The position numbers were made by a program, and so were the translations under genes. Below, piece by piece: positions 4,793 through 64,000 of a stretch of DNA of 64,000 bases (positions are counted from its first letter, which is position 1; each line of letters begins with the position of its first letter). The DNA is taken from the IMG/VR virus record IMGVR_UViG_3300033146_001994, positions 23,548 to 87,547 of that record. One strand, written 5' to 3'. The stretch is from a virus. Under the pieces are notes generated by a model that worked only from the letters and a program-made list of their open reading frames with translations, ran no database searches and had not been told where the DNA came from.

Positions 4793-4866
4793 TGTTAATG
4801 TAATATGGTATAGATAGTTAAAACTTATCTGTCTCAATTTGATAGGAAAATAAATTAATTGTATAA

Positions 4867-12716: not shown

Positions 12717-15700
12717 ATGGATAAGGTAAATGATGGCTTTAAAGTAGGGAAAGAAGATATATATAATCCATTGAAAGGAGATTCTAGTGAGATTTCAGGT
12801 GTGTATGTAGTTAATATTGTAAAAGAGGATACAGAGTTAGTAGTTACATTTAGTAATGGTACTACAACTCATTTTGCTATAGGAGAAACTGGATTTTTAA
12901 ATGTTAAAAATGTTACATATAATGAACATGATAACAGATTAGCTATTGTATATTCAGATGATACTGAAACTATACTTCAGTTAAAAACATCCATTACAGG
13001 CTTAGCTGTAAATAATAAAAAGCTTTCTATAACCTACAGTGATGGTTCAACTAACACTTTAAATATAGATGATTTACTCTCCTTTTCAGGCGATAATGAT
13101 AGTATAGTTATTTTAAGGGATAATGTGTTAACAATATCTTCTTCTAAATTATCAGATTTTGTAAATAAAGAAGATGATAACGACTTTAATGGAGATAATA
13201 CTTTTAATGGTAATTCATACTTAAGTAATTTAAAGTTTTTAGCTGATGACCCACTAAGTAGCCCAATTCTCCACATATCTGACCTTACAGCAAAAGGTGA
13301 TTCAGATACATCTACACTAATGACAAAACATGCAATCTTAAAATTATTTGGCAGTTTTACAGGAGGAGGTATAAATATAACAGGCAATGCTAATAACATT
13401 CCTGTAATAAACACAGATGGCGATGGATTAGTTGATTCTTTAATCAGTAAAGATAATTTATTTCTATTAAATACTAAAGCCGATAGAGTTGTCACAGATG
13501 GTAATATACTATTTGATAATATAGATATTCAGATTAAAGAAAGTCTATCTGGTCAATTAGGAGCGTTACCAAAAGGTAATTTCTCATTATCAAACGGGAT
13601 AAAAGTTAAATATATTTTAGATAATATTTCAAATACTTCTTTTGATAAAGATAAATCTTTAGTTACTGCACAAGGAGTTGAAAATTCAATAGCACAAGCA
13701 CAGTTAAATAGCGTAACATTTACAAAAAGTGTAATTAGTGCATTACCTGATTATCCTACAGGTGAGCCTGCATCACCCTCTCAAGGAGATAGATACATAA
13801 TTAATATTGATGCCAACGAAACTTCAACATTAACAGGACAGACAATACCTAAAAATTCAATAATTGAATGGGAGGGTACAGGAACTGGATGGATTATTAC
13901 ACCTCCTGTCAATGCCCTATCCACATTAAATAGAGCAACTGGTACTTTTTGGAGAGTTGTCCAAGATTCAAATAATAGATTAGTCTGGGAAGACCCAAAT
14001 TCAGGAGGAATATCATCACATGATGATGCTACAGATGTTAGAGATTCTGATGGAGTATCTATGGCAACTCCATCACAAGCAAGACATCTTAATTCACAGG
14101 AAACTGATTTATTATTAAAAGGTGGAACAGTTTCTACTGAACATACTCATGCACCTGCAACTGCAACAAGACCAGGAAGTGTACCTGCATTACCTTTAGA
14201 CAGTTCTAAATTTCTTAACGGTGAGGGTGAATTTGTCTCTATGGCAGATATTAATAATGTAACTGACTTACAAGTAGAATTTGATACAGATACAACTTCT
14301 CCATTTAAGAAAGTCTCCCCATTGTCAAATGGAGTATCAGGATTTACAGTAGGAAATGTAACGACATTAAACTGTTCATGGATAGCAGACGTTACAACAC
14401 GTAATTGGGTAATTACAGATATAACTTTTCCAAAAGAAGAATATACTACAAAAATAACAATAACAAACAGCTATGGTGAGTATTTTCAATACATAGTAAG
14501 TACTAAAAATCCAGCACTTGGGGCAATTTCGTCTGTAATACTTTTAAATAAAGGTGTTGATGGTAAAAATTGTTCAATCAATGTTCAAGTCAGTACTGAT
14601 GGAAAAACACACTCAATAGAAAGCAATCCAGGAAACACACATAGGGCATTACATGAAGCATATGGAGACCCTAGATTTTATTGCCATATTGAATTAATTG
14701 GATACTCAGGTTATTCACTTGGGGATAAGATAACTATAATTCCTAGAGCAGATGTAGGAATAAACGACCACATAACTCCAAATGTTTCAAATATTTTAGA
14801 TGGAGCAGTTGGAGAAGCCAATTACGGATTAAATATTGGAGAAGCTGGAACAGGAATATATAAAGAGAAAACTAATTCAGTCTTAACCTTTAAAAAACTA
14901 AACTCGATATCTGAACATTTAACAATTAATGATTCAGAGGATGGGGAAATAGAATTTAACTTTGACCCTAAAACTGACTTTAGTAAAACTGACTTCATAA
15001 CTGCTGTTCAAGATGGTAATGATAAATATAAATTTAAAGCCGTAAATTTTAACAGACAATTAAGTCAGCATACAATTATCTATTTACATTTTCCTGACGA
15101 AATGGATGCTGATTTAGACAATGCTAACATTTTACTAAGTATTGATGAGGGAGAACACTATGTTCCTATTATGGATAGTGCAGGAGAAACAATTAAACTT
15201 GTTAACGCATTTAAAAGGGGTCTTAAAATAGCCTTAATGTATGAGGAGGATTCAGATACAGAAGCAGAGGGTTGGTATCCATTATTTTCAGATTTAGATT
15301 TTATCAGATTAGCAGGTGAGGGTTGGAACGGAGAAACTATCCTAGATAATTACTCAAAAAATCAAGTTCAAGATGATACTATAACAAATATATTATCTGC
15401 ATTAGCGTCAGGTGGAGAGATTGTTTCAGAAATAGTTGCTATTAATGGGGTTATTACTGCTCCTGTAGAGAAGACTAAAATTGACTTTGAGGTTGATATT
15501 CCATCAAACAACACAAGCTATTTAGATGTAGATGCAAGTAATGATATTTTATTAGAAAGTGAAAATCCCGCAGGATATCAAATAATTGGAAATTTTACAG
15601 TAAAAGGAACTCAACTTGATTCATCTGTATCAAGTAAGGTAAGATTTAAGTTATATAATGGAGATGACCCAATAGATACGTTCAATATCGTTGTTTTAAA

Positions 15701-29191: not shown

Positions 29192-31291
29192 ATGCCTTAT
29201 AATAATAGATATAATAATTCGTATTCACAACAACCCTTACCTATACAGCAATCTGCTGATAAAGGTGTGCCTATTATATTGGGGTACAAGCCATCAATTG
29301 ACCCTAAAGTACTACAAAGCAGTCTTGCAAGAGCAGATGCTAAATGGAATAGCGCTAAAAATTTACCTGCTACACTAATTACAGAATTGAACAAACATAA
29401 AATGTATGCTGCTGATAGAGAGCGTGTGGCTGAAAGTATAAACAAAGGTACAGACGATATTGTAGAATTAGTTAAAAATGAATATAATGGTGATTGGAGT
29501 AAAGCTTATGATGATATTAAAAACAAAGTGAATACTTTACAGTCAGGAATCACATTAGGTTCTAATAATTATGCAGAGTATAAACCTTATGAAATGATGT
29601 TGGCTAAAGAAAGAGCACAGGGTAATAAAATTTATGATGCTAGCGGTATAGGAGATATCAGAACTAAAGGAACCTTGAGTTTTGATAATAATAGATTAAA
29701 TACTAGAAAAGATATAGGAACAGAATTTTCAATTTACAATGATTCTAAAATTTTAGATAATATACATAGAAACATATCAACACCTCTTTCTAATACAGTT
29801 TCTTCAATATTATTAAAAAAGTACAACAAAAACGATATTTTAGGAATGTTACAAAGCGGTACTATTAAAGGTAAAAGTGCCGATGAAGTACGTAGTTATT
29901 ACAAAAGACTTGCAAATTCTAATCCACAAGTAATTATAGACCAAATGATGTCCACAGATGGTTGGAATGCTAAGATGAATAATGAATTGGGAGCTGGTTG
30001 GGAAACTGATGCCACTAGAATTGCAAGAGCACAAGACCTATTTGTAAACAATATTGCATCACAGGTAACAAAACAAGTACAGCTTAATTATAGTAGAGAC
30101 CCTAGTTTTACAAAAACTGTACCGCCATCTTCATCACAGCATGGATTATATGGAGATTCTACAACTGTAATAGCTAATACAGATGTAGCCCATTTTACTC
30201 CTGATGCTAAAAAAGATATAGATATATCTAAAGTTAGTAGTAAAACAGCAACAAGTCCAAGTGCAACGCCCTTACAAAAATATGCATTTCAACATAAGAA
30301 ATTTGTTTATAGTGCTGCTAGAAAGAAAAGACAGGATGTAATAGATAAATTAGGTATTAAAGATGAAATAAAAGCACAACTTAACACATACTTAAAATTA
30401 GCGGATAAAGGCATACTGCACTCCACTGCAAATATTTCAAATTTTAGTACTGCTTCCACTCCTGACCCAATATCTAATAATAATATAGATGGTAAATTAA
30501 GTGAAGCAGATATACAAATGCTCAAGAATGTAGGAATTAAAACTGTAGGGGATTTTGACAACTTGTATAATCTACATAAGAAAGTAGGAACTGCATTAGG
30601 ATACCGTATGATACCTCCAACCATCAATGATTTAGCCAATGATGAATTTCAAAACATGGATTTGCCTGTATCACATATCTCAATAACAAATATAAGTGGC
30701 AATGATGCAAAGACAAATATGTTTAGGTATTTACCTACTCTAAGTGAAATTATTAATAAAGAACGACCAGTTAATATGGCAAATGCTACTGAAACTACTG
30801 CATGGGGGGATGATGGAGCTATAATTACTCTTAACGCTCACAAGGATGCTAATTCATTTAAAGATTATATAATACCTATTAGAAGCTTGACAGAGGATGC
30901 TGCTAAAACACTATCTGCAAAATCAAAAAACCCTATGTATTGGATAGATAATAAGTATGGAGCAAAATTAACAAAAATAAAAACTACTTCTACAGGCAAT
31001 ACCCCTGATGAATTATATAATAATGCAATGCCCGCAGAAGAATTATTAGGGTTTAGCAATGTTAAAGGTAAAGTAATATATGATGCTAGTAGAAAGGAAT
31101 ATGCAATACTTATAAAAGATGCTGAAAATAAAATTAGTAAGATTCCTTCATTATCAAGGTTACAAGTTATAGATACTTTATTAAGTCTAAACAAAGTTGA
31201 TAATGCTAGTGCAAAAATAAACCTAAATATAATTAAAGAATTTCAATCTAACTCTTCTGAAATAAAAGAGCGTAAAAAAGATGTATACTAA
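29192..31291 (+). CDS. Putative virion cargo protein
   Basis: 699 aa between the cargo gene and the RNAP gene. Confidence 0.5.
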   Translation: MPYNNRYNNSYSQQPLPIQQSADKGVPIILGYKPSIDPKVLQSSLARADAKWNSAKNLPATLITELNKHKMYAADRERVAESINKGTDDIVELVKNEYNGDWSKAYDDIKNKVNTLQSGITLGSNNYAEYKPYEMMLAKERAQGNKIYDASGIGDIRTKGTLSFDNNRLNTRKDIGTEFSIYNDSKILDNIHRNISTPLSNTVSSILLKKYNKNDILGMLQSGTIKGKSADEVRSYYKRLANSNPQVIIDQMMSTDGWNAKMNNELGAGWETDATRIARAQDLFVNNIASQVTKQVQLNYSRDPSFTKTVPPSSSQHGLYGDSTTVIANTDVAHFTPDAKKDIDISKVSSKTATSPSATPLQKYAFQHKKFVYSAARKKRQDVIDKLGIKDEIKAQLNTYLKLADKGILHSTANISNFSTASTPDPISNNNIDGKLSEADIQMLKNVGIKTVGDFDNLYNLHKKVGTALGYRMIPPTINDLANDEFQNMDLPVSHISITNISGNDAKTNMFRYLPTLSEIINKERPVNMANATETTAWGDDGAIITLNAHKDANSFKDYIIPIRSLTEDAAKTLSAKSKNPMYWIDNKYGAKLTKIKTTSTGNTPDELYNNAMPAEELLGFSNVKGKVIYDASRKEYAILIKDAENKISKIPSLSRLQVIDTLLSLNKVDNASAKINLNIIKEFQSNSSEIKERKKDVY

Positions 31292-48513: not shown

Positions 48514-48939
48514 TTACCTGTTTTCAAATACTGTAACTATATCAATTCCCTCTAGCATTAAAATAATATCTGCGTGTAAAGAATTTTCTAAAGGTTTCTC
48601 TATGAATATATAATATTTTAATAGTAAGTTATTAGATAAAATAGGAATTGCTTCAAATTTATAGGTTTTTCCTGCATCTTCTCTATTTTTTAATTTAAAA
48701 GAGATAACTCTAAACTCATCATCTACATAACTTGCCATTATCAAGGTATCATTAGTTGTATTTAAGTAAAACTTAGCAAGTCCTAGTTTATAAGTATGTG
48801 TTTTCTCTGTTTTAATATTGTAGTCATAAATAGAGTAGGATACATATAAACGTGCTGGCAAAAGGTGTGATTGTGCTGTTACGCTTAATGCCAATCCTAG
48901 TAAAATTATTAATATAAAATTTTTCATAATATTATTCAT
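48514..48939 (-). CDS. Secreted/periplasmic hypothetical protein
   Basis: Sec-type signal peptide MKNFILIILLGLALSVTAQ; overlaps the groEL stop. Confidence 0.55.
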   Translation of the reverse strand: MNNIMKNFILIILLGLALSVTAQSHLLPARLYVSYSIYDYNIKTEKTHTYKLGLAKFYLNTTNDTLIMASYVDDEFRVISFKLKNREDAGKTYKFEAIPILSNNLLLKYYIFIEKPLENSLHADIILMLEGIDIVTVFENR

Positions 48940-50524
48940 TAATTAATTCTTCTGCAATTACACACTCTGTTGTTAAGAAAGTACCTGCTACTGATGCTGC
49001 ATTTTCTAAGGCTGTCATAGTAACTAGTGTAGGGTCAATAATGCCCTCTTCTAACATATTACACATTCTATTGTTTTTAACATCATAGCCAATTCCCTTT
49101 CCTGCTTTATTAATCTTTTTAGTTATCTTTTTAACATTCAATCCTGCATTAAGAATTATCTGCTTTAATGGAACTTTCAAAGCTTTAAACAACAATTTTT
49201 CTCCTAAACTATTGTCTTTTCTAGCCAATAATTCATTAGCGATATGATAAAGAACTGCACCTCCTCCTGGAACTATACCCTCCTTTACAGCTGATTTTGT
49301 AGAGTTCAAAGCATCCTCTACTCTATCCTTTAATTCGTCCATTTCCATCTTAGAAATACCCCCTACATATATAATACAAACCTTTCCAAGTAATTTACCT
49401 CTACGTTGCATTAATCTTTCTTTATCGTAATTAGAATGTGAAATAGCTAAATCGTTGTCAATCTGCTCAATTCTTTTAGTAATTACTTCTTTGCTAGAAT
49501 TACCTCCAATTATAGTAGTATCTTCTTTACCAACAATAACCTTAATAGCATCTCCTAAAATTGTAGGAATCTTTGTAGCATCAATATTACGTAAATTACT
49601 TATAGTATTTCTATCTATTGCAGATGCGCCTGTTACTGCTGCAATATCTAACATATTTTCAATCTGTGTCGTACTAAAAGATGGAGTTTTAATAGCTACT
49701 CCTTGAAATTTCATTTCATATAAGTTCTGATTAAATATCTGTAAAGCTTCATTCTTTAAATCATCTACAAACATTACAATAGGTCTGCCTTTATCTACTG
49801 AATACTTCATGAAAGGAATAATATCTGTTGCCTTTGAAAAGACATAATTACTTACAAATATAATTGGATTGTCAAATTCACAAGTACGCTTCTTTACATT
49901 AGTAATCATTAAAGGAGACATGTAACCTCCATTAACCTGCATTCCCTCTAAGTTATCAATGTAAGTATCAAAGTTTTGAGACTTTTCTATTTCAATAACT
50001 CCATCATTACCTACACTTGACAAAGCTGCTTTAATAAGTTTACCTACCTTTGTACTATTATTAGCAGAAATTGTAGCAACATTCTCTATAGCTTGTAAGT
50101 CATTTGATACTTCAATTGAACTAGATTTTAACTTAGATAATACATCTGTAACTCCCTTGTCTATACCATCCTTTAATGCTACTGAACTTATTCTTTTACT
50201 CTTCTTTAAAAGAGATAAACCATTAGATATAATAGCTTCTGTTAATACTATTGCTGTTGTAGTACCATCACCTGCTATGTCATTAGTCCTTAAGGCTGCT
50301 TCCTTTGCTATAGTAGCTCCAATGTCCTTGAAAGGGTCTTTTAAATATACATTTATTGCTACTGTTACTCCATCCTTTGTGATTGAGGGTACTCCTAACT
50401 TACGCTCGTATATAACATTTCTACCTTTTGCTCCCAAAGTTACCTTTACTGCTTTAGATAACTCCTGTACCCCTGAAAATACAGCCTGCCTTGAATCTGT
50501 ATCAAACTTTAATAACTTACTCAT
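48932..50524 (-). CDS. groEL: Chaperonin GroEL (Cpn60)
   Basis: VKVTLGAKGRNV, ITKDGVTVA, AGDGTTTA, GIVPGGG, GIIDPT and ALENAASVA motifs; no GGM tail. Confidence 0.95.
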   Translation of the reverse strand: MSKLLKFDTDSRQAVFSGVQELSKAVKVTLGAKGRNVIYERKLGVPSITKDGVTVAINVYLKDPFKDIGATIAKEAALRTNDIAGDGTTTAIVLTEAIISNGLSLLKKSKRISSVALKDGIDKGVTDVLSKLKSSSIEVSNDLQAIENVATISANNSTKVGKLIKAALSSVGNDGVIEIEKSQNFDTYIDNLEGMQVNGGYMSPLMITNVKKRTCEFDNPIIFVSNYVFSKATDIIPFMKYSVDKGRPIVMFVDDLKNEALQIFNQNLYEMKFQGVAIKTPSFSTTQIENMLDIAAVTGASAIDRNTISNLRNIDATKIPTILGDAIKVIVGKEDTTIIGGNSSKEVITKRIEQIDNDLAISHSNYDKERLMQRRGKLLGKVCIIYVGGISKMEMDELKDRVEDALNSTKSAVKEGIVPGGGAVLYHIANELLARKDNSLGEKLLFKALKVPLKQIILNAGLNVKKITKKINKAGKGIGYDVKNNRMCNMLEEGIIDPTLVTMTALENAASVAGTFLTTECVIAEELINE

Positions 50525-57048: not shown

Positions 57049-57396
57049 ATGAAAAAAAATAAAGCTATGGATTTAAATTGTCCTTATTGCGGTGCAGAAT
57101 TAGAAATATGTCATGATGATGATTTTGGATATGAAGTAGGTGTTGAACATGAAATGGAATGTAGTAAATGTAATAAACTATTTATATTTAAAACATCAAT
57201 TTCTTTTTATTATAAAGCTAGAAAAGCAGACTGTCTAAATGGTGCTGAGCATAATTATAAAAAAGTAGCAACATTTCCAGAGGAATTCTCTAAAATGAAA
57301 TGTGAAGTTTGTGGTGCTGAAAGAGAATTTACTGATGAAGAACGTGTAAAGTTCGGTATTGGAACAAAAGAAAGTTATTTTGAAAGAATAAAATAG
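57049..57396 (+). CDS. Zinc-ribbon protein
   Basis: CPYC, CSKC and CEVC motifs. Confidence 0.65.
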   Translation: MKKNKAMDLNCPYCGAELEICHDDDFGYEVGVEHEMECSKCNKLFIFKTSISFYYKARKADCLNGAEHNYKKVATFPEEFSKMKCEVCGAEREFTDEERVKFGIGTKESYFERIK

Positions 57397-57472
57397 TATT
57401 ATTACTAATAGCTCTGATAAGATATGTTGCGACCATTGAAAACTAAATTATCAATATTGTAAAATCATAAAT

Positions 57473-57661
57473 ATGAAATACACAATAGAACAGAAAAAAC
57501 CACATAAAGACCAAATAATAGTTTTTAAAGCAAATCACGGTACATTCCCTGAGATTGGCATATGGTCTGATTTTGAAGATAACCTAAGTGAGGTTTATAT
57601 ACCTGCAAATGATGATGTGGAATTAGTTAAAAACATTGAATGGTGGATGCCAATAGAATAG
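57473..57661 (+). CDS. Cassette ORF, hypothetical (ends WWMPIE)
   Basis: 62 aa with a DUF551-like W-M-P C-terminus. Confidence 0.5.
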   Translation: MKYTIEQKKPHKDQIIVFKANHGTFPEIGIWSDFEDNLSEVYIPANDDVELVKNIEWWMPIE

Positions 57662-57785
57662 TATTATTGGTGTATGAACAATAGCCGATAAAAAACACAA
57701 CATTGCGATTACATATAAAGATTATTAACCAAATAATAGCTTAACATAAAGCACCTTAGCAGGCTATTATTTTTATTTATTGTTA
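57662..57785 (+). repeat. attC-like site (degenerate left end)
   Basis: Arms AATAGCC (57680-86) / GGCTATT (57762-68); ends in TGTTA. Confidence 0.55.
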
Positions 57786-57799
57786 GGGTGCATTATTTT

Positions 57800-57976
57800 A
57801 TGTTACAAACTTTAATTGATATATGTTTTGGAATAATAGGTATAGTAATAATAATACTATTTACAATATTATATCAAAATATTACAGGAGAAAATGCTGA
57901 ATTTGCAATGTGGATAGTTAATGTTATGATTAGCATTATTGTGGTGCTAAGACAATTTAAACGAAATGCACCCTAA
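57800..57976 (+). CDS. Cassette ORF, small two-TM protein
   Basis: Flanked by a perfect 13-bp IR GTTAGGGTGCATT (57782-94) / AATGCACCCTAAC (57965-77); the stop is the TAA of TAAC. Confidence 0.6.
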   Translation: MLQTLIDICFGIIGIVIIILFTILYQNITGENAEFAMWIVNVMISIIVVLRQFKRNAP

Positions 57977-58097
57977 CGGTGTGGATATGGGCTGATTGCC
58001 CTTGAAATTTAGTAAATAACTTAAAATTGAAATGCAGTGGAAAATAATAAAGAGAATGTAAATAAAAAGAACGGCAATTTGCCTATATTTAGTATTA
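57974..58097 (+). repeat. attC-like site, 124 bp
   Basis: TAAC..ATATGGGCTGATTGCC..loop..GGCAATTTGCCTATAT..ATTA. Confidence 0.75.
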
Positions 58098-58423
58098 GTG
58101 GCAGTTTTTTGCTACGAATAGCACTAAGCCCATTTTTATTTCTATGGGGAGTTTTTATGTTAATGGTGGGAACATTATTTCCACTACCTTTATTGGTTAT
58201 ATTTAGCACGATGGGGCTTATAGTAACACCATTTGTTTGGTTATTGCGAAAAAGTGGTACAGACATAAAATACCCTGAACCATTTATGGCAAAAGGAGAA
58301 GATTATGGAAATGAAAAAAACATAATGCGTGACCATTTATTTGGAGCAACTATATATGTATGGGGGGCATTTGCAGTAGCATACTACTATGTAAAAACAG
58401 GTGAAGTATTTACTGTAGGTTAA
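58037..58423 (+). CDS. Cassette ORF, membrane protein; frame begins inside the attC-like site
   Basis: Hydrophobic segments; cassette IR ATTAGTGGCAGTTT (58094-107) / AAATTGCTATTAAT (58422-35). Confidence 0.6.
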   Translation: MENNKENVNKKNGNLPIFSISGSFLLRIALSPFLFLWGVFMLMVGTLFPLPLLVIFSTMGLIVTPFVWLLRKSGTDIKYPEPFMAKGEDYGNEKNIMRDHLFGATIYVWGAFAVAYYYVKTGEVFTVG

Positions 58424-58495
58424 ATTGCTATTAATGGCTCTGTTATACATTATTGTAACAAATCACTATAATATTTAATAAAAAAACAGAATAAA

Positions 58496-58687
58496 ATGGT
58501 AGGAAAATATGTAATCATAGACTTAAGAAGCATAGACCATGTGAAAGACCAAATGGTCTATATGACAGACCAAAACGGCAAAATTATCCTCTGTAACACT
58601 GAGATAGATGCCGCCATAACTTGCGAAATGCTTGGATTTAAAAATGTTTGGATTTGCAAATTGATTTTTAATTATGTAAATATTTGA
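58496..58687 (+). CDS. Hypothetical protein
   Basis: 63-aa ORF after a half site at 58432. Confidence 0.5.
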   Translation: MVGKYVIIDLRSIDHVKDQMVYMTDQNGKIILCNTEIDAAITCEMLGFKNVWICKLIFNYVNI

Positions 58688-58730
58688 TAAGATGAAAAAA
58701 ATATAATTAATTATAATATAGGAGGATTTT

Positions 58731-58994
58731 ATGAATAAAAAAGATACTAAAAGACTTGAAAACATAAAGAAAAGATTAGGTGTAACAACAAAAGCAGAAA
58801 ATGTAGTAGTGGAGCATTTATTCAAACGTGACTTAAATAGAAGTATATTACTTGAGAGTTATGGTGATATTAAAGAAAAAGACGGGTGGATTCAAATAAA
58901 TGCAATAACAAATAAACATTCCTATTTATTTAGTATATCAGTAAGTGAACTAGAAAAGGGAGACGAAAGAGAGTTATGGCACAAAATTGATTAA
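58731..58994 (+). CDS. Hypothetical protein
   Basis: 87-aa ORF with AGGAGG upstream. Confidence 0.55.
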   Translation: MNKKDTKRLENIKKRLGVTTKAENVVVEHLFKRDLNRSILLESYGDIKEKDGWIQINAITNKHSYLFSISVSELEKGDERELWHKID

Positions 58995-59102
58995 TTGATA
59001 TAATGGAATACAGCTATATGTAAGGTTTTGATAAAAAGTCGTTTTAATGTTTTTTATTTATTATTAGCGTTTTGTTTTATTAATAACTTAAAATTGAAAT
59101 CA

Positions 59103-59291
59103 ATGAAAGAAATACTAAATACTAATCAAATATTAAAAGCAACAATTTGGTTAAAAGAACATAGAAAACACGTTTATGATATGGTGTGTAATTCAAAAAA
59201 TGAATATCCACCAACAGATAACAAAGATAAGAATAATCCTAATTTATGGAAACCTGAACATTGGAAATGGTTTTTGCATAATGCAGGGTAA
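59103..59291 (+). CDS. Cassette ORF, hypothetical
   Basis: MKEILNTNQ...; the stop is the TAA of TAAC at 59289. Confidence 0.55.
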   Translation: MKEILNTNQILKATIWLKEHRKHVYDMVCNSKNEYPPTDNKDKNNPNLWKPEHWKWFLHNAG

Positions 59292-59403
59292 CGGTTTGTA
59301 TATAAAACGGTGCAAAACGAAATGTAATAGAAAACAGAGAATTAAATAATTAAATATAAACTAAATAAAAGACCACAACAGCATTGTTTTATATACTTTG
59401 TTA
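59289..59403 (+). repeat. attC-like site, 115 bp
   Basis: TAACggttt GTATATAAAACGGTGC..GCATTGTTTTATATAC ttt GTTA. Confidence 0.8.
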
Positions 59404-59418
59404 CGTGGCGTTAAGAAA

Positions 59419-59733
59419 ATGGGCGATTATATTGATAATGTTGTTATTAGGCTAAAAAGAAAATATAGCAAGGACGAACTTGTGCAAAGTATGCTTAAGG
59501 AGCAAAGCCAACTTGAATTAGAAAATGGTATACTTAAAAGTGAAAAAGATGAATTGGAATATGAACTAAACCAAATAAAAAAAATGGATAGCAAAACCAA
59601 ACGAGATTTTCACCAAACTTTATATGTTAAAAACACTAAGAAAGAATTAAAAGCTTTGCGCGAATTATGCAAGAAACTTAAAAAAGAAAACCAAGAACTT
59701 TGGGGTAAGTTGGCAAAAGCTAATGCCACATAA
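59419..59733 (+). CDS. Cassette ORF, coiled-coil protein
   Basis: IR GTTACGTGGCGTTA (59400-13) / TAATGCCACATAAT (59721-34). Confidence 0.6.
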   Translation: MGDYIDNVVIRLKRKYSKDELVQSMLKEQSQLELENGILKSEKDELEYELNQIKKMDSKTKRDFHQTLYVKNTKKELKALRELCKKLKKENQELWGKLAKANAT

Positions 59734-59856
59734 TAGATGGTAATACGGTGTTGGTGCGAAAATGAAAGCGCTTACTTAAATTAACCACAAAATTAAGAAT
59801 GAAATATGGAAATTAAATATTAACCACATACTCGCACTACATTATATTTTATGTTG
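59731..59856 (+). repeat. attC-like site, 126 bp
   Basis: TAAT..AATACGGTGTTGGTGCGA..TCGCACTACATTATATT..GTTG. Confidence 0.75.
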
Positions 59857-59882
59857 TGGTGCGTTTATTTAAAATTATAGCA

Positions 59883-60059
59883 ATGCCAAAAGGAAAACCG
59901 AAAAGTAAATTTGTATTTGATATAGACCCAAAAACAGGGAAAGAAAAGGGTTGTGAATACGAAAATGGAACTTGGTGTGATTTACCTAAATATAAAAGAT
60001 GTGAACATTGTATTAGGCTAAACGACGGAAGTAAGGCTTGTTATGTTACTTCTCTTTAA
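59883..60059 (+). CDS. Cassette ORF, small Cys-rich protein
   Basis: IR GTTGTGGTGCGTT (59853-65) / AATGCACCACAAC (60058-70). Confidence 0.6.
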   Translation: MPKGKPKSKFVFDIDPKTGKEKGCEYENGTWCDLPKYKRCEHCIRLNDGSKACYVTSL

Positions 60060-60066
60060 TGCACCA

Positions 60067-60192
60067 CAACGGTGTGAATATGGCAAGTAGCCAACAATAG
60101 AATGAGAATTTTTAAAATAAATATAATGTTTAACCTTTCGCAAATAGCTCCAAAAAGACCACATAGCAGGCTATTTGCTATATTTTATGTTA
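60067..60192 (+). repeat. attC-like site, 126 bp
   Basis: CAACggtgtg AATATGGCAAGTAGCC..GGCTATTTGCTATATT ttat GTTA. Confidence 0.8.
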
Positions 60193-60207
60193 TGTGGCGT
60201 TGAAATT

Positions 60208-60471
60208 ATGAAAATAACTAAAATTTATTACAATTTTGTGCAAGTTCAATTTGAAGATGGGGCAGGAGAAGATTACATGATAGCGGAAGTAGGAAAACCA
60301 TTTTTATCTTATAATGGTGGTGATGAATATCAAGACAAAAAAATTATCAATATCACAGAACACAGACCCGCGGGTGAAGGCGATAAATGGTTTTACGATA
60401 TTGAATTAGAAGATGACAAAATTGTTAGAGTGTTTAATATTAATTCAGTATTTTATTCAAATGCCACATAA
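60208..60471 (+). CDS. Cassette ORF, hypothetical (HRPAGEGDKWFYDI)
   Basis: IR GTTATGTGGCGTT (60189-201) / AATGCCACATAAC (60460-72); stop lies in TAAC. Confidence 0.65.
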   Translation: MKITKIYYNFVQVQFEDGAGEDYMIAEVGKPFLSYNGGDEYQDKKIINITEHRPAGEGDKWFYDIELEDDKIVRVFNINSVFYSNAT

Positions 60472-60592
60472 CAGTTCTGATAAGATACGTTGCAAATACA
60501 AAGAATTGATTTATAAATTTAATAAGATTTAAATATGAAATACTTACGTAACAAATTAGCACAATTTAAGCAATGGATTTCATCTATTGTTA
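60469..60592 (+). repeat. attC-like site, 124 bp
   Basis: TAACagttctg ATAAGATACGTTGC..GCAATGGATTTCAT ctatt GTTA; left part nearly identical to 57406-57430. Confidence 0.7.
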
Positions 60593-60876
60593 AGTTTCGT
60601 TTTTGTAAAATTACAAGTGAAACTCAAAAATCAAAAAGAATTAAATCATTATTTGAAACTTATTTCGATGGATGTTACGGAGTGGATGCACAAGAAACCG
60701 TATCAAATACTTATGCAATGGGAATATGTAAGTTAGAATATAGTGATAGTACAAATATACTTACTGTGCATCTACGTAGACCCGGATTATTAATTGGAAA
60801 ACAAGGCAGAATTATTGAAGAAGTTGAGAAATATTTAAAATGTAAAATCAAAATAATTGAGATAACACATTTTTAA
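60535..60876 (+). CDS. Cassette ORF with KH-like (ribosomal S3-type) domain
   Basis: LTVHLRRPGLLIGKQGRIIEEVEKYL; IR GTTAAGTTTCGTTT (60589-602) / AAATGAAACTTAAC (60875-88). Confidence 0.65.
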   Translation: MKYLRNKLAQFKQWISSIVKFRFCKITSETQKSKRIKSLFETYFDGCYGVDAQETVSNTYAMGICKLEYSDSTNILTVHLRRPGLLIGKQGRIIEEVEKYLKCKIKIIEITHF

Positions 60877-60884
60877 ATGAAACT

Positions 60885-61008
60885 TAACGGTGTAGCGTAT
60901 GAAATGTAGGCGATTAAAACAACTACTTTTCATATTTGCACCAAACTAAATTAAAAGATGAAACGATTATTAACCGACATACACGCCTATATTTTATACG
61001 CATTGTTA
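60885..61008 (+). repeat. attC-like site, 124 bp
   Basis: TAACggtgta GCGTATGAAATGTAGGCG..CGCCTATATTTTATACGC att GTTA. Confidence 0.85.
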
Positions 61009-61030
61009 GGCGTATGTGCTTTAAATTAAA

Positions 61031-61306
61031 ATGATTATGAATAAGTCAATAGAAATAAAACATTTCAATTTAATAGATTACAATATTCTTTTAAAAGTTG
61101 TCACTGAATATGTAAAGCAATATCAAATAAGTAGAAATAAATTTGAATATGAAAAACATATATTTGACTTAACAGATACCGTATATGGTTTGAAATGTCA
61201 TAAAAATCCTGTTAAGATTTCAATAGATAATCATTGGAAATCGTTTTGGGTTAAAGTAAGAGAAACAAAAACTAAATATAAATTTGATATATGGTATGCT
61301 TCTTAG
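61031..61306 (+). CDS. Cassette ORF, hypothetical
   Basis: IR GTTAGGCGTATGTGCT (61005-20) / AGCATTACGACTAAT (61305-19). Confidence 0.6.
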   Translation: MIMNKSIEIKHFNLIDYNILLKVVTEYVKQYQISRNKFEYEKHIFDLTDTVYGLKCHKNPVKISIDNHWKSFWVKVRETKTKYKFDIWYAS

Positions 61307-61315
61307 CATTACGAC

Positions 61316-61372
61316 TAATGGTTAGTATAAGATGCAACGCAGTGACCGTAGGGTGCATTTTATACATTGTTA
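61316..61372 (+). repeat. attC-like site, short class, 57 bp
   Basis: TAATggtta GTATAAGATGCA-acgcagtgaccgtaggg-TGCATTTTATAC att GTTA. Confidence 0.8.
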
Positions 61373-61418
61373 GCCTTAGTATGGCTTAATTTAGTAATAA
61401 CTTAAATAAATAGAAATA

Positions 61419-61778
61419 ATGAATAGAGAAATAAAATTTAGAGCATGGGATAAGCAAAATAACGCATTTGCTGAATTATATACAAATGTAGATTGTATGA
61501 ATAATTTAGATAATGATAATGTTGCAATTATGCAGTATTCTGGTTTAAAAGACAAAAATAATAAGGAAATATTTGAAGGTGATATTATTAAAATCCCTGA
61601 TGATTATGATACTTACGGAATATTTGCAGGGGAAATATACGAAATATATTTTGCTTATGGTGGATTTAGATTAAAACCTAAAAACTCAAAAAGGCGTGGG
61701 AATTGGCTTGAAGATGAAAAAGAATTAGAAGTGATAGGTAATATTTATGAAAATAAAGACTTATTACCTACTTCTTAA
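61419..61778 (+). CDS. YopX family protein (cassette)
   Basis: MNREIKFRAWDK..MQYSGLKDKNNKEIFEGDII..EVIGNIYEN; IR GTTAGCCTTAGTAT (61369-82) / ATATTAAGGCTAAC (61778-91). Confidence 0.85.
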   Translation: MNREIKFRAWDKQNNAFAELYTNVDCMNNLDNDNVAIMQYSGLKDKNNKEIFEGDIIKIPDDYDTYGIFAGEIYEIYFAYGGFRLKPKNSKRRGNWLEDEKELEVIGNIYENKDLLPTS

Positions 61779-61787
61779 TATTAAGGC

Positions 61788-62071
61788 TAACGGATTATGG
61801 CTATGTATAGTGCCGGCAAATTGCACGGAACTTTAAATTATTAACTTAAATTAGTGAGCGATGAAAATAATTATAAAACCTGTAAATGATATAGAAAAAA
61901 AAGATTTCCCAAAAAGTGTTGTTTCAATGCAATTAGGAATATCTCTTTTTATATTAGAACAATCTGATATTGAAGAAGTAATTAAGAAATTAAGCAAATA
62001 TAGTGAACGACAAAAAAACACTGACCATTTAGAAAACACCGAACAAAAGGCATTACATATAGATGATATTA
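61788..62071 (+). repeat. attC-like site with enlarged coding loop, 284 bp
   Basis: TAAC..CTATGTATAGTGCC..~230 nt..GGCATTACATATAG..ATTA. Confidence 0.6.
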
Positions 62072-62274
62072 TGTTGTGTCTTGAATTAAGATTAAATATA
62101 GATACATGGGGGAGTTATAAAAAAGGCGATATAGAAGTATTTTACATAAGAATTTGCGATGAACAAAACGGCTTAGTTAGATATCCAATAGATAAAAGAT
62201 GGGATATTATTAGTTGTAGTTTAGTGAATGCCCCTAACAGTTCTAATGAGAATAGTAACCGAAATATAATATGA
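61861..62274 (+). CDS. Hypothetical protein, apparent loop-cassette fusion
   Basis: The first ~69 codons lie within the attC-like site (..EQKALHIDDIMLC..), the rest in the next cassette. Confidence 0.55.
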   Translation: MKIIIKPVNDIEKKDFPKSVVSMQLGISLFILEQSDIEEVIKKLSKYSERQKNTDHLENTEQKALHIDDIMLCLELRLNIDTWGSYKKGDIEVFYIRICDEQNGLVRYPIDKRWDIISCSLVNAPNSSNENSNRNII

Positions 62275-62372
62275 TGGTTTACTGAATATAAAATAAAATA
62301 AATATTGTAAAATAGTATATGATATAAAAATAATGTATATATTTACAGTAAATAATATATAAAAAGTACACC

Positions 62373-62996
62373 ATGAAAACAAATCAAATAATGGTTAGAG
62401 AAGAAAAGCAATTTCTACAACGGACAAAAGATGGTTATTTTAGTGCTACCACACTTTTGAACTATTGGAATACAAATAACCCAAAAAAAAGAAAAGAAAT
62501 GGGTATTTACAAAAGAAATAAAAGTACAAAGGAATTTATTAAACATTTGCAAAAAGAGAATATTGAAAACCCTTACATTTCATCAAATAAGGGAACTTGG
62601 CTTCATCCAAAATTATTTATCGATTTTGCAATGTGGGTTTCTGTTGAGTTTAAAAGTAAGGTTATTGATTATGTCTTGGATGGACTTATATTTAATCGGA
62701 ATGAAGCAGGAGATTATTATAAAGAAATGTGTGCGACTATTATGGATACTCATATTGAATTTTTCGGAACAAAACCAAATCCGAAAATATACAGTGAAGA
62801 AGCTAATAGAATTACAAAAATATTAAAATTACATAAAAAGGATAGAAACCTAATGACCGAAAATGAATTGAATACCATAACTGTATTGCAAAAAACAAAC
62901 GTTTTACTATTGCGAAAAAAGGTAGGGAAAGATGCAAGAATAAAGCAATTAATGCTTCAAGCAGAAATATTAAATATTGACGACCATTCTTTGTAG
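62373..62996 (+). CDS. KilA-N domain DNA-binding protein
   Basis: QRTKDGYFSATTLL..GTWLHPKLFIDFAMWVSVEFKSKV. Confidence 0.85.
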   Translation: MKTNQIMVREEKQFLQRTKDGYFSATTLLNYWNTNNPKKRKEMGIYKRNKSTKEFIKHLQKENIENPYISSNKGTWLHPKLFIDFAMWVSVEFKSKVIDYVLDGLIFNRNEAGDYYKEMCATIMDTHIEFFGTKPNPKIYSEEANRITKILKLHKKDRNLMTENELNTITVLQKTNVLLLRKKVGKDARIKQLMLQAEILNIDDHSL

Positions 62997-63086
62997 CCTT
63001 GAATGGAGAGCTAATAAATTACATAGAATTAAATAGATATTATTAACCACAGATTAAGCAATTAACCGCTATCATTTTTATTTATT

Positions 63087-63245
63087 GTTAAGGATTGTTT
63101 ACTTATGGAAAAAGAATAAAAAAAAGTAAAAAAAGTATTTCAACAGCACATCATTCAATATTAATTGGAGATGGATTATTTACAGATAAATCTTATCATT
63201 TATTGGTGAATAAGAATGGTGTAAAAATTGACAAAATTGCTTAAC
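63087..63245 (+). pseudogene. Decayed cassette (ORF stops after MEKE)
   Basis: Bounded by GTTAAGGATTGT and AAATTGCTTAAC; ATG 63105 is followed by an early TAA. Confidence 0.4.
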
Positions 63246-63298
63246 GTGCCGATTATATGGCACGTATGAGGAACGAATATGGGCTATATAATGTGTTG
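63242..63298 (+). repeat. attC-like site, short class, 57 bp
   Basis: TAACgtgccg ATTATATGGCACGTAT-gaggaacga-ATATGGGCTATATAAT gt GTTG. Confidence 0.8.
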
Positions 63299-63413
63299 TG
63301 TGTCTGTGGGCGGGGATTATAGCACAAAGTTTATTTTGCGAAACAAGAATTAAAAAAGAAAAAAAGGGAAGGCGAAAACTTTATAGAGTAGCCAAATAAA
63401 TAAATTTATAAAA

Positions 63414-63632
63414 ATGGATAATTCATTTTACGAAAGACTTCTAACAGAAGCACAAGAGTTGGCAACAAAAACAAATGCCTTAAATGACTTTATGAGAACG
63501 CAAAAATTCGTTGATTTAGATAGGGTAAACAAAAATTTACTTTACAAGCAATCGAGATTAATGAATGAGTATTTACAAATACTTGGGCAACGAATTGAAT
63601 TGTTTGGCGAGAAGTTTTCTTTTAAGAAGTAG
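63414..63632 (+). CDS. Small helical phage protein (resembles crAss001_48-like family)
   Basis: ERLLTEAQEL..KTNALNDF..LLYKQSRLMNEYLQILGQRI pattern; imperfect IR GTTGTGTGTCTGTGGG / CCCAAATAACGCACAA. Confidence 0.55.
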   Translation: MDNSFYERLLTEAQELATKTNALNDFMRTQKFVDLDRVNKNLLYKQSRLMNEYLQILGQRIELFGEKFSFKK

Positions 63633-63714
63633 TGCGGTGGGCTTTTTATTTTTAACCCCAAATAACGCACAAAGTTAGAAACGTGGTACAGTGTTAGCAT
63701 TGGTTATACGCATT

Positions 63715-63796
63715 GTTAGGCACTGTGCCACCTTTAAACAGGAGCAAGTGTTTAGCAATTAACGAATATAATATCATTTTTGGCATTGTGCCTAAC
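63715..63796 (+). mobile_element. Minimal ORF-less cassette (82 bp)
   Basis: IR GTTAGGCACTGTGCCA / TGGCATTGTGCCTAAC (14/16) encloses only 50 bp. Confidence 0.65.
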
Positions 63797-63918
63797 GGTG
63801 TGAATATATTGTTGGTGCGATTTATAAAACGATTGCCTGACATCAGAAAAACATTAAATGTGAAACGAGAAAATTTAAAATATAGTAATAACCAAGCACT
63901 GCAATATATTTGTTGTTG
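63793..63918 (+). repeat. attC-like site, 126 bp
   Basis: TAACggtgtg AATATATTGTTGGTGC..GCACTGCAATATATT tgtt GTTG; the next cassette begins GTTGTGGTGCGTT, identical to 59853. Confidence 0.8.
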
Positions 63919-63941
63919 TGGTGCGTTAAATTCTTAATATT

Positions 63942-64000
63942 ATGAGAAAATTTAATTTAGAAGCGAAAATAACAATTAGTGTTCATACTGTTGTTGATGC
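63942..64000 (+). CDS. Next cassette ORF (truncated by window end)
   Basis: ATG 63942 MRKFNLEAKITISVHTVVD... Confidence 0.45.
   Translation, partial: MRKFNLEAKITISVHTVVD

Follow-up and report, generated by a model that had tools for sequence, protein, structure and literature searches.

The window, that is the whole 64,000-nt stretch of viral DNA analysed, belongs to a marine crAss-like phage, whose contig carries a 63-nt terminal repeat and represents a complete genome of 87.5 kb. An array of small genes occupies the 3′ end of the window, continues across the contig end and stops 117 nt short of the dUTPase gene. Nine units in this array are bracketed by unit-specific 13-nt inverted repeats (arms) of the form GTT.../...AAC, and hairpin spacers (sites) lie between units. 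The features, with arm pairing as matched positions, are as follows:

57049-64000 and on into contig 1-818, + strand: cassette array, 7.8 kb, about 20 small co-oriented ORFs
57782-57977, + strand: unit a, arms GTTAGGGTGCATT / AATGCACCCTAAC, 13/13; ORF 57800-57976
59024-59062, + strand: short-class site, loop motif CGTTTTAATG at 59040-59049; degenerate junction (GTAA) before it and degenerate left arm (ATTAGCG...) after it
59400-59734, + strand: unit b, degenerate, arms GTTACGTGGCGTT / AATGCCACATAAT (10 Watson-Crick pairs, 2 G.T and 1 mismatch, counted by eye); ORF 59419-59733
59735-59852, + strand: long-class site between units b and c, 118 nt by its coordinates
59853-60070, + strand: unit c, arms GTTGTGGTGCGTT / AATGCACCACAAC, 12/13 plus one G.T; ORF 59883-60059
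60071-60188, + strand: long-class site, 118 nt; stem 60077-60092 with 60169-60184 (14 Watson-Crick pairs and 2 G.T), unpaired linkers of 6 and 4 nt
60189-60472, + strand: unit d, arms GTTATGTGGCGTT / AATGCCACATAAC, 12/13 plus one G.T; ORF 60208-60471
60473-60588, + strand: long-class site, 116 nt; stem 60479-60493 with 60570-60584, the loop holding the start codon of the next ORF (60535)
60589-60888, + strand: unit e, arms GTTAAGTTTCGTT / AATGAAACTTAAC, 12/13 plus one G.T; ORF 60535-60876, a KH-domain protein
60889-61004, + strand: long-class site between units e and f, 116 nt by its coordinates
61005-61319, + strand: unit f, degenerate, left arm GTTAGGCGTATGT, right end ...CGACTAAT; ORF 61031-61306
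61320-61368, + strand: short spacer between units f and g, 49 nt
61369-61791, + strand: unit g, arms GTTAGCCTTAGTA / TATTAAGGCTAAC, 12/13 plus one G.T; ORF 61419-61778, a phrog_98 match, YopX-like according to the annotation of a BLAST neighbour
63087-63245, + strand: unit h, degenerate, arms GTTAAGGATTGTT / AAAATTGCTTAAC, 10/13 counted by eye
63715-63796, + strand: unit i, 82 nt, without an ORF, arms GTTAGGCACTGTG / CATTGTGCCTAAC, 11/13 plus one G.T
63797-63914, + strand: long-class site, 118 nt; stem 63803-63811 with 63902-63910
63915-64000, + strand: left part of unit j, arm GTTGTGGTGCGTT; its partner AATGCACCACAAC ends at contig 216

Across the 87.5-kb genome, 11 GTT/AAC pairs matched at 12/13 or better, nine of them inside the 7.8-kb array; the two outside it are A+T-rich. 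Three pairs were found across the contig end (window 63915/contig 216, contig 335/487 and contig 604/818). All six end pairs named in a preliminary description of this DNA were present, 57782/57977 with 13/13, 63715/63796 with 11/13 plus one G.T and the other four with 12/13 plus one G.T. At a looser criterion of 11/13, 54 unrelated phage loci (979,290 nt) gave 23 G.T-type and 23 A.C-type pairs, and the background density of bracketed units was about 0.02 per kb versus nine in the 7.8 kb of the array. Counting against a cassette reading, arm pairing was undetectable for 10 of the 20 array ORFs or units, judged partly by reading the sequence. Cultured Polaribacter phages and further viral contigs (9-128 kb) show the same architecture.

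In 40 units from nine loci, pre-selected for at least 10-11 Watson-Crick pairs, cognate arms were complementary at 5.8 of the six variable positions versus 1.95 of six for non-cognate arms; because of this pre-selection, the evidence lies in the enrichment and the strand bias and not in the cognate score. The variable hexamers were diverse (33 distinct among the 40 units). Mismatches in these arms comprised 41 G.T versus 1 A.C on the coding strand, and arm position 11 was G.T in 36 of the 40. Homologues of unit e, carrying the KH gene in other contigs, have different arms that still match each other, so that the arms co-vary. The arm pair of unit d encloses three unrelated ORFs in other contigs. 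Sixteen pairs of units with the same arms were compared: the upstream site was common to three, the downstream site to none and the ORF to one. Identical arms around unrelated ORFs and within unrelated flanks (15 of the 16 pairs) are not simply predicted by a cassette reading and count against it.

The hairpins and the overlap of stop codons with the arms, both pointed out in the preliminary description, are real. The stems of 13 spacers contain 176 Watson-Crick pairs, 21 G.T, 2 A.C and 8 other oppositions on the coding strand, which gives the more stable fold in 11 of the 13, and stop codons use arm bases, either as T|AA at the arm start or as the TAA of TAAC. Linkers in these spacers measure 4-6 nt on the AAC side and 1-4 nt on the GTT side. 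The sites fall into two length classes, one of 116-118 nt (9 of the 13 spacers) and one of about 40-50 nt, and the short-class loop CGTTTTAATG had 13 matches in 257 kb versus 0.25 expected.

RNA structure would show coding-strand G.T pairs equally. The stems might act in a long early transcript, folded into a hairpin at every spacer and into a 13-bp stem around every ORF, with a role in processing or mRNA-end protection and with cassette-like evolution as a secondary effect. The preference for G.T over A.C in both kinds of stem, the stabler coding-strand fold in 11 of 13 spacers, the position of the arms, one just 5′ of the start codon and the other at the stop, and the co-variation of arms between homologues all fit such a role; the crAss-like phage phi14:2 has early promoters without a known motif and abundant non-coding intergenic RNAs, according to the available part of its description (bioRxiv 10.1101/2020.03.07.982082). 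However, a search of Rfam matched no family, no RNase III gene was found in the phage, and neither the gain and loss of whole units bounded by AAC nor the linkage to a DNA recombinase (both below) is explained. Moreover, arrays occur in phages differing greatly in type and size (33 to 128 kb), which makes a phage-specific RNA polymerase signal unlikely. We therefore regard a primary role in RNA as improbable.

Comparison of relatives revealed differences of cassette size. The cultured Polaribacter phages P12002L and P12002S, at 99% identity, are distinguished by whole cassettes with cuts precisely behind AAC; of the seven gaps that separate their 99%-identical blocks, four are edged by ...AAC on both sides, and a 1080-nt insert in P12002S consists of exactly four units. 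The pair L194/L198 shows one AAC-to-AAC replacement and another that swaps a spacer alone. Among 24 listed contig pieces from the array phage's own relatives in three metagenomes, 7 of 48 ends lie within 2 nt of an AAC junction, and one contig (run X1) joins 60888 to 59024. Related cultured phages differ by whole cassettes, in line with the shuffling proposed in the preliminary description, with edges at ...AAC| of the coding strand and not at the G|TT that it had taken for the cassette boundary. These breakpoints assign the folding site to the gene downstream, the mirror image of an integron cassette. Blocks common to unrelated contigs consist of a site and a left arm, and that of L062 and L077 (95.9%) stops at the inner end of the arm. 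GTT-side breakpoints also occur (one site followed by different units, and one spacer-only replacement), and these count against exchange at AAC. No circular junction or excision product was observed, which counts against a cassette reading too. The first 10-14 nt after AAC are alike between sites, so homologous exchange there would give the same breakpoints.

Such exchange is part of another explanation, in which the spacers are regulatory stem-loops like the PeSLs (promoter-early stem-loops), composite terminators and promoters between small early genes, swapped by ordinary homologous recombination with no dedicated recombinase. A motif, T(-15)..TWTAY(-10..-6)..T(-1)GTTA, is strongly conserved ahead of each unit and nearly limited to the array (12 of its 16 matches on the genome + strand, with 2.8 expected per strand), which fits such elements; what otherwise unrelated contigs conserve is the spacers, the breakpoints fall within 10-14 nt of common sequence, and a recombinase is missing from most phages that carry an array. 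For T4-type phages, the available text of PMC4122927 documents indels bounded by PeSLs. Yet sigma-70-type promoters and canonical terminators were not in excess in a scan whose models do not extend to Bacteroidota promoters, and the unit-specific 13-bp pairing across each ORF with its co-variation, the fixed G.T at position 11 and the fact that arrays almost always sit directly upstream of one recombinase family are left unexplained. We consider this explanation unlikely.

The recombinase in question is a 268-aa Xer-like tyrosine recombinase, to whose gene arrays in other phages are tightly linked. An array (at least one G.T-type unit) lies directly upstream in 58 of the 59 loci with at least 1 kb of upstream sequence, and in 39 of these 58 the nearest AAC is 33-114 nt from the gene. 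Over 80 recombinase loci, 256 G.T-type units were counted in 267 kb upstream of the gene versus 16 in 366 kb downstream; 202 distinct units at such loci have the consensus of the window and its 110-129-nt spacer peak, and the empty unit i recurs in record G004, 37 nt upstream of the recombinase gene. The 268-aa protein scored 130.5 bits against the integron-integrase model, under the curated cut-off of 265. The absence of an integrase, reported earlier for the window, holds for the whole genome: a search of this complete, terminally repeated sequence gave no tyrosine or serine recombinase, Y1 transposase (HUH) or member of the 268-aa family. Among ten other array-bearing records searched, only two have a tyrosine recombinase. 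Both findings weigh against the cassette reading.

One reading that a Xer-like linked enzyme favours is that host XerC/XerD-type enzymes act on the sites as double-stranded DNA, the array being a phage counterpart of the dif modules of Acinetobacter plasmids. Units alternate with spacers, each of them bounded by inverted repeats, and in P12002S units abut with 4-7 nt from AAC to GTT, giving two inverted 13-bp arms around a short centre; single modules are replaced with conserved junctions, as in the available account of dif modules (PMC13141974). The logos, read by eye, however, reveal no inverted second half-site at a constant distance (6-8 nt) from AAC in the common 116-118-nt sites, a strand-specific G.T bias is unexpected for double-stranded sites, and the genes are all co-oriented, with none of the inversions typical of dif modules. 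This makes such targets very improbable.

Taken together, the region probably holds arrayed mobile gene cassettes and works as a phage-borne system for gene capture that resembles an integron without being a canonical one. It would be serviced in trans, each gene having its site in front of it and crossover taking place at AAC. Each cassette would start just after the ...YAAC of the preceding one. Its gene would lie between the left arm (T|GTTR, six variable bases, GT and N) and the right arm (N and AT, then six variable bases and YAAC), and the left arm would be preceded by two short linkers, the first unpaired, in most cases separated by a 15-20-bp hairpin whose loop varies. In the excised circle, right arm, hairpin and left arm would form one long imperfect hairpin of the coding strand on the plan of attC, with a paired AAC/GTT box, unpaired spacer, second stem and variable loop. 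The 268-aa recombinase or a host Xer-type enzyme may cut and join folded single strands at AAC, with circles as putative intermediates; in the recombinase-less crAss-like phage the cassettes may be serviced in trans, for example during co-infection, or the array may merely be inherited. If so, phage accessory genes are held in swappable cassettes without a recombinase of the phage's own.

PeSLs, as described in the available text on T4-type phages (PMC4122927), are likewise conserved stem-loops between small fast-evolving genes, with motif-bounded indels and replacements and mostly ORFan cargo. They differ as local terminator and promoter elements, with exchange thought to be homologous or site-specific, and none is described there with cross-ORF pairing, an AAC/GTT core or a linked recombinase. 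The dif modules of Acinetobacter plasmids (pdif, XerC/XerD), in the available part of PMC13141974, resemble the array in their small accessory modules flanked by inversely oriented sites, alternating module types, replacement between related replicons, and an element that itself has no recombinase; but pdif sites are 28-bp and double-stranded, with two distinct half-sites and a 6-bp spacer, and the modules invert. The phage array has long strand-biased hairpins, one gene direction and, in many phages, a dedicated Xer-like gene linked to it.

An integron has an IntI integrase, an attI site and an array of attC cassettes, and a CALIN is an attC cluster without integrase. Relative to integrons, the array has a 13-bp instead of a 7-bp end box, in which position 11 is a fixed G.T; the site precedes its gene, with exchange at AAC on the coding strand, which is also the favoured folding strand; and the linked 268-aa enzyme is Xer-like, below the integron-integrase cut-off and absent from the array genome. 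The nearest phage precedent found in print is two-site CALINs only, in the available text of Qi et al. 2023 (PMC9892861), which reports one in Polaribacter phage P12002L, from which IntI1 recombined one predicted attC into attI1; a claim that integrons are unknown in Bacteroidota phages would thus be slightly too strong. That text makes no mention of crAss, Bacteroid-, Flavobacter- or Cellulophaga, and its CALIN has two sites whereas the array has about 20 cassettes. P12002L carries both the site family of the array and those attC predictions, a match at the level of the phage. The shuffled integron-like cassettes first proposed stand as to AAC/GTT triplets, end pairing, whole-cassette differences and a linked recombinase, while the canonical integron plan gives way to its mirror image. 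With integrons and CALINs the array shares small co-oriented cassettes, some without an ORF; imperfect hairpin sites with only AAC and GTT as fixed letters, unpaired linkers and loops of variable length; ends that pair cassette-specifically; stop codons within the AAC box; and, as in integrons, a tyrosine recombinase gene adjoining the array in relatives.

The window forms the last 64 kb of an 87,547-nt IMG/VR record bearing a 63-nt terminal direct repeat; the genome is therefore circular or circularly permuted, and nearly all of its genes lie on the + strand. The major head protein matched those of crAss-like phages of Bacteroides, Flavobacterium and Cellulophaga at 34-36% identity, and a 4391-aa ORF as well as portal and head PHROGs were present in the genome, so that the crAss-like label of the preliminary description is reasonable. 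Parts of the window were present in three metagenomes, two of which, labelled marine sediment and hydrothermal vent, contained small shares of its words; no RNA run was among the public runs listed. Pfam analysis of 30 further ORFs of the genome revealed replication and chaperone genes only. A Cpn60/GroEL-type chaperonin gene (window 48932-50524, - strand; Pfam E value 3e-57) is one of only two sizeable minus-strand genes. Outside the window, a family A DNA polymerase gene was found in two ORFs (2444-3679 and 4420-4941 of the whole record); the intervening stretch of about 740 nt, in which small ORFs occur, has the appearance of an intron or a mobile insert.

The array extends from window position 57049 across the contig end to contig position 818. 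A unit, designated by a letter, is the stem formed around an ORF by a left arm (GTT...) and a right arm (...AAC) that pair with each other, and a site is whatever lies between AAC and the GTT that follows. All six end-to-end complementarities named in the preliminary description were found in the sequence, and three further paired units were located where the array wraps across the contig end (window 63915/contig 216, contig 335/487 and contig 604/818). In the whole genome, 11 GTT/AAC pairs match at 12 or more of 13 positions, and 9 of them were inside the 7.8-kb array; as background, the looser criterion of 11/13 gave 23 pairs of each mismatch type (G.T and A.C) in 979 kb of unrelated phage loci. 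Among the approximately 20 ORFs or units of the array, a clear stem was found in 10, including one ORF-less unit and the degenerate unit b; units f and h are more degenerate, and the remainder have no stem. ORF-less units of about 82 nt occur in the window and in two other array-bearing contigs (L057 and L077).

A PHROGs scan of 18 array ORFs assigned a family to 6 and a clear function to none, the dUTPase gene and a 711-aa ORF lying outside the array, and BLAST of the whole array against cultured phages returned two short YopX-type matches only. The 711-aa gene adjoining the array has distant relatives only (at most 46% identity in IMG/VR and 53% in metagenome contigs); its protein is widespread among unrelated phages, and arrays were absent from the relatives found through it in both collections. 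The KH-domain cassette protein (window 60535-60876) has 93 relatives at E<=0.001, some of 83-88 aa without the first 28 or so residues and others of 109-113 aa with a leader encoded in the site. In unit k (contig 281-487) the ORF stops at 427 and a second frame continues to the TAA of TAAC at 487; this unit may be a frameshifted cassette gene.

Arm statistics were obtained from 40 good units, found in the window and at eight further loci. In these units the left arm reads GTT-R, six variable bases and G-T-N, and the right arm N-A-T, six variable bases and Y-AAC, with 33 different variable hexamers in the 40 units. At the variable positions an arm paired with its own partner at 5.8 of 6 positions and with non-cognate arms at 1.95 of 6; since the units were picked for at least 10-11 Watson-Crick pairs, enrichment and strand bias, and not this score, are taken as evidence. 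As in integrons, both ends of one cassette pair mutually and not with the neighbour. Mismatches between arms were G.T in 41 cases versus A.C in one, and position 11 was G.T in 36 of the 40 units, the G always being in the left arm of the coding strand. Conservation is strong in the 5′ flank, with T at -15, TWTAY at -10 to -6 and, in 39/40 units, T at -1, and weak in the 3′ flank, with G in 32/40. A 14-nt left-junction motif gave 16 matches on the + strand of the genome against 2.8 expected, 12 of them in the array. Extension of the helix outward into the flanks was seen in some units and absent in others.

Five long sites were located in the window.

Long sites (window coordinates)
59735-59852, long site
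60071-60188, long site
60473-60588, long site
60889-61004, long site
63797-63914, long site

In a set of 13 sites, 9 are 116-118 nt long despite differing loops. The stems have 9-26 pairs and, in 10/13, start 4-6 nt past AAC and end 1-4 nt short of GTT. When G.T and A.C pairs were treated alike in scoring, the 13 stems contained 176 Watson-Crick, 21 G.T, 2 A.C and 8 other pairs, and the coding strand gave the more stable fold in 11. A rival reading of such stems is that they act in RNA; no Rfam match was found for the array, and we regard this reading as improbable, although it could hold alongside a role in DNA. A second, short class of site (about 40-50 nt, with the loop CGTTTTAATG) had 13 matches in 257 kb versus 0.25 expected, one of them at window 59040. 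Imperfect copies of the downstream unit's right arm were seen in the loops of hairpin-type long sites (window 60153-60173 and 57750-57760; 4450-4470 of contig L062; about 7700 of L077), and the left arm could therefore pair locally rather than across the ORF. As a general rule such a copy was rejected, for it is confined to a few hairpin-type sites (mean 7.34 vs 6.97).

The same architecture was found in other IMG/VR contigs of 9-128 kb, reached through the KH gene of unit e and two site patterns; these contigs are either mutually identical or share sites and arms only. In homologous KH units the arms differ yet still pair; relative to contigs L058/L059, this phage has changes in both partners at three positions. 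Window 60474-60592 is 83% identical to L062 5941-6058, the block running from just past AAC to GTTA, and a site together with its left arm is common to L062 and L077 (95.9%), this block stopping where the arm ends on its inner side. One and the same arm pair, that of unit d, surrounds four unrelated ORFs in four contigs, three of which share their last three residues, read from the arm. In 16 pairs of units with the same arms, the upstream site was common in 3, the downstream site in 0 and the ORF in 1. A leader of 18 codons, encoded in the loop and stem of a site, is in frame with three different bodies.

Bodies fused to the 18-codon leader
KH protein: this phage and contigs L057/L058
Other proteins: contig L064; contig L062

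In a search for host or chromosomal arrays, a 24-nt site pattern was absent from 185,579 species genomes. A 20-nt pattern matched two MAG contigs, the first of which (30% G+C, 71 kb, one unit) is probably a phage; the other, a Bacillota contig of 56% G+C, contains no array and matches the conserved beginning of the long site exactly over 20 nt at 962-981. Region 100000-145343 of Cellulophaga phage phi17:2 contained no units above background.

The position of exchange was examined in related genomes. The Polaribacter phage P12002L shares these units and the short class of site, which in this phage is almost identical to one of contig L059. Its sister phage P12002S is 99% identical to it across 77% of the 20.7-kb early region. 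Seven gaps separate the shared blocks: both edges read ...YAAC in 4 and did not in 1, and 2 correspond to diverged methyltransferase genes. A 1080-nt insert of P12002S is exactly four units with AAC at its end, and units of this phage may abut with 4-7 nt between AAC and GTT. The one informative pair of recombinase-bearing loci (L194/L198) revealed one replacement from AAC to AAC and one of the site only, from AAC to GTT. When metagenome contigs were compared with the window, 7 of 48 piece ends lay within 2 nt of an AAC junction (57408, 57976, 57978, 59733, 60473, 60886 and 60888), a count which is indicative only because it comes from a selection of 24 listed pieces from the Logan contigs of three metagenomes. 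One such contig joins 60888 to 59024, so that the short-site cassette follows the KH unit there. Several of the joints listed have sides of about 20 nt and were left aside, since they look like matches between short start regions that are repeated.

Together with the finding that arms go with the upstream site, these AAC breakpoints indicate that the cassette consists of a site plus a gene and is cut at AAC. The integron-type cassettes proposed in the preliminary description thus stand as regards the pairing of cognate ends, whereas gain or loss exactly at G|TT, proposed as a check, was not borne out, since in P12002L/P12002S and the metagenome contigs the edges are at ...AAC on the coding strand. 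This says that the cassette, as read from sequence, would be the mirror image of an integron cassette. As the 5′ box is the one cut on the coding strand, this strand would be the "bottom", recombining strand in integron terms, which agrees with the G.T bias. The exact cut is uncertain, as sites resemble one another in the 10-14 nt that follow AAC, and homologous exchange would leave the same scars. Such exchange underlies an unlikely alternative, in which regulatory stem-loops are shuffled by homologous recombination in the manner of PeSL elements. PeSL is a composite of a terminator and an early promoter; here there was no excess of canonical terminators (2 vs 2.0 expected) or of sigma-70-type promoters (42 vs 50.7 expected, in a scan that does not cover Bacteroidota promoters).

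Sites of P12002L include those at 30011-30078 and 30849-30965. The array region of this phage also contains a methyltransferase gene (30052-30849); at the DNA level it is 90.5% identical to a methylase gene from Cellulophaga phage phi12:1, and Flavobacterium phages have one with 87% identity; cargo is therefore common to phages of different host genera. At P12002L 14622-15197, a unit with + strand G.T surrounds the annotated - strand gene gp24, and is either a reversed-cargo cassette or a mis-called ORF.

The preliminary description had noted no integrase in the window, and this holds for the whole 87.5-kb genome: no PF00589 match was obtained at E<=1, so that the tyrosine recombinase sought elsewhere in the genome is not among its genes by this measure, nor did a 15-member alignment of the Xer-like family described below match anything at E<=10. 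Serine recombinase, Y1 transposase and RNase III were likewise not found in the whole genome. A tyrosine recombinase was present in 2 of 10 other array-bearing records. In one of these (G004, 33 kb with terminal repeats), the recombinase gene starts 37 nt past the last, ORF-less unit, whose arms are the same as those of window unit i. The enzyme is a 268-aa Xer-like protein scoring below all curated cut-offs, including those of integron integrases (130.5 vs 265 for TIGR02249 and 76.1 vs 435 for NF011946), and its family comprises 3017 proteins at E<=1e-20.

As the G004 protein used as a single query matched itself only, the 15-member alignment was used to collect 80 viral recombinase loci. Upstream of the recombinase gene, 256 G.T-type versus 19 A.C-type units were found in 267 kb; downstream, the numbers were 16 and 25 in 366 kb. 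Of 59 loci (found via the enzyme) with at least 1 kb upstream, 58 had at least one unit and 54 at least two. The nearest AAC was 33-114 nt from the gene in 39/58 loci, and exactly 37 nt in 11. The 202 distinct recombinase-linked units have the consensus of the window, with a spacer peak likewise at 110-129 nt; both sets share T|GTTR..GT / AT..YAAC|G with G.T at position 11 and A at -7, and the recombinase-linked values are 92% for T at -1, 90% for A at -7, 90% for G.T at position 11 and 91% for T at -11. In the window array, no recombinase gene follows the last AAC; instead, 117 nt separate the end of the array from the dUTPase gene.

Because of the recombinase linkage, the AAC-bounded differences and the attC-like plan, the array is probably best explained as a putative integron-like capture system acting at the DNA level. 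On a broader proposal our judgement is evenly divided: Bacteroidota phages, marine and other, may possess an integron analogue of their own, in which a small Xer-like recombinase would act on the folded coding-strand site ahead of each gene, and enzyme-less virulent phages, such as this crAss-like one, would keep working arrays that are serviced in trans at co-infection. Some sites contain a start codon and as many as 18 codons, so that exchange there would, in addition, attach the same N-terminal leader to various protein bodies. If true, the capture system would explain concretely how small ORFan and early genes turn over so notoriously in phages, crAss-like ones included, and how small genes spread between unrelated phages with common hosts. 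For the window, it would explain a mosaic of about 8 kb that is unrelated to other crAss-like phages. Its testable parts are the 268-aa enzyme, the sites of 40-120 nt and the cultured pair P12002L/P12002S, which already differ by whole cassettes.

Searches of the literature on integron-like tyrosine-recombinase systems in Bacteroidota phages, at the level of titles and abstract openings, found no published description of this architecture, and at the same level it was not described in the literature on integrons, attC and CALINs in phage genomes or on early promoters of crAss-like phages. The available part of a tyrosine-recombinase classification reports 27 phages with simple recombinases and describes no cassette arrays (PMC8138268).

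Among known systems, dif modules (pdif/XerCD) resemble the array in being flanked by inverted repeats. They differ in having 28-bp sites, with two distinct half-sites around a 6-bp spacer, in alternating orientation; junctions were considered as dif-like palindromes and rejected, as logos inspected by eye reveal no further half-site at a constant short spacing from AAC. That host XerCD acts on double-stranded sites, as in the dif modules of Acinetobacter, is accordingly highly improbable.

Integrons are the textbook gene-capture platform of bacteria, and an integron-like capture system, if true, would be their phage parallel, with mirrored cassettes, another recombinase and, in each array, tens of small accessory genes. 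The plan of the attC site is the same (right arm, linker, stem, loop, stem, linker, left arm), with an imperfect hairpin, AAC/GTT, unpaired spacers and a variable loop, but the arrangement here is larger, with 13-bp boxes and sites of 116-118 or about 40-50 nt. Integrons also have an attI site and a Pc promoter, and their cassettes pass through circular intermediates. In an integron cassette, unlike the present units, attC follows the gene, crossover takes place at G|TT in the 3′ end of attC, and recombination uses the strand opposite to the coding strand; an IntI-type tyrosine recombinase lies beside the integron array, whereas this genome is without one. In the latter respect the array resembles a CALIN, a group of two or more neighbouring attC sites, as called by the attC covariance model, without an integrase nearby. 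The available text of Qi et al. 2023 (PMC9892861) reports 3 integrons and 17 CALINs in 10,705 phage genomes, and contains no occurrence of crAss, Bacteroid-, Flavobacter- or Cellulophaga. For P12002L it predicts two attC sites, located around two methyltransferase genes, and reports that IntI1 recombined one of these sites into attI1 (PMC9892861). From the gene neighbourhood, with its two methyltransferase genes, we infer that these attC sites are sites of the present family.
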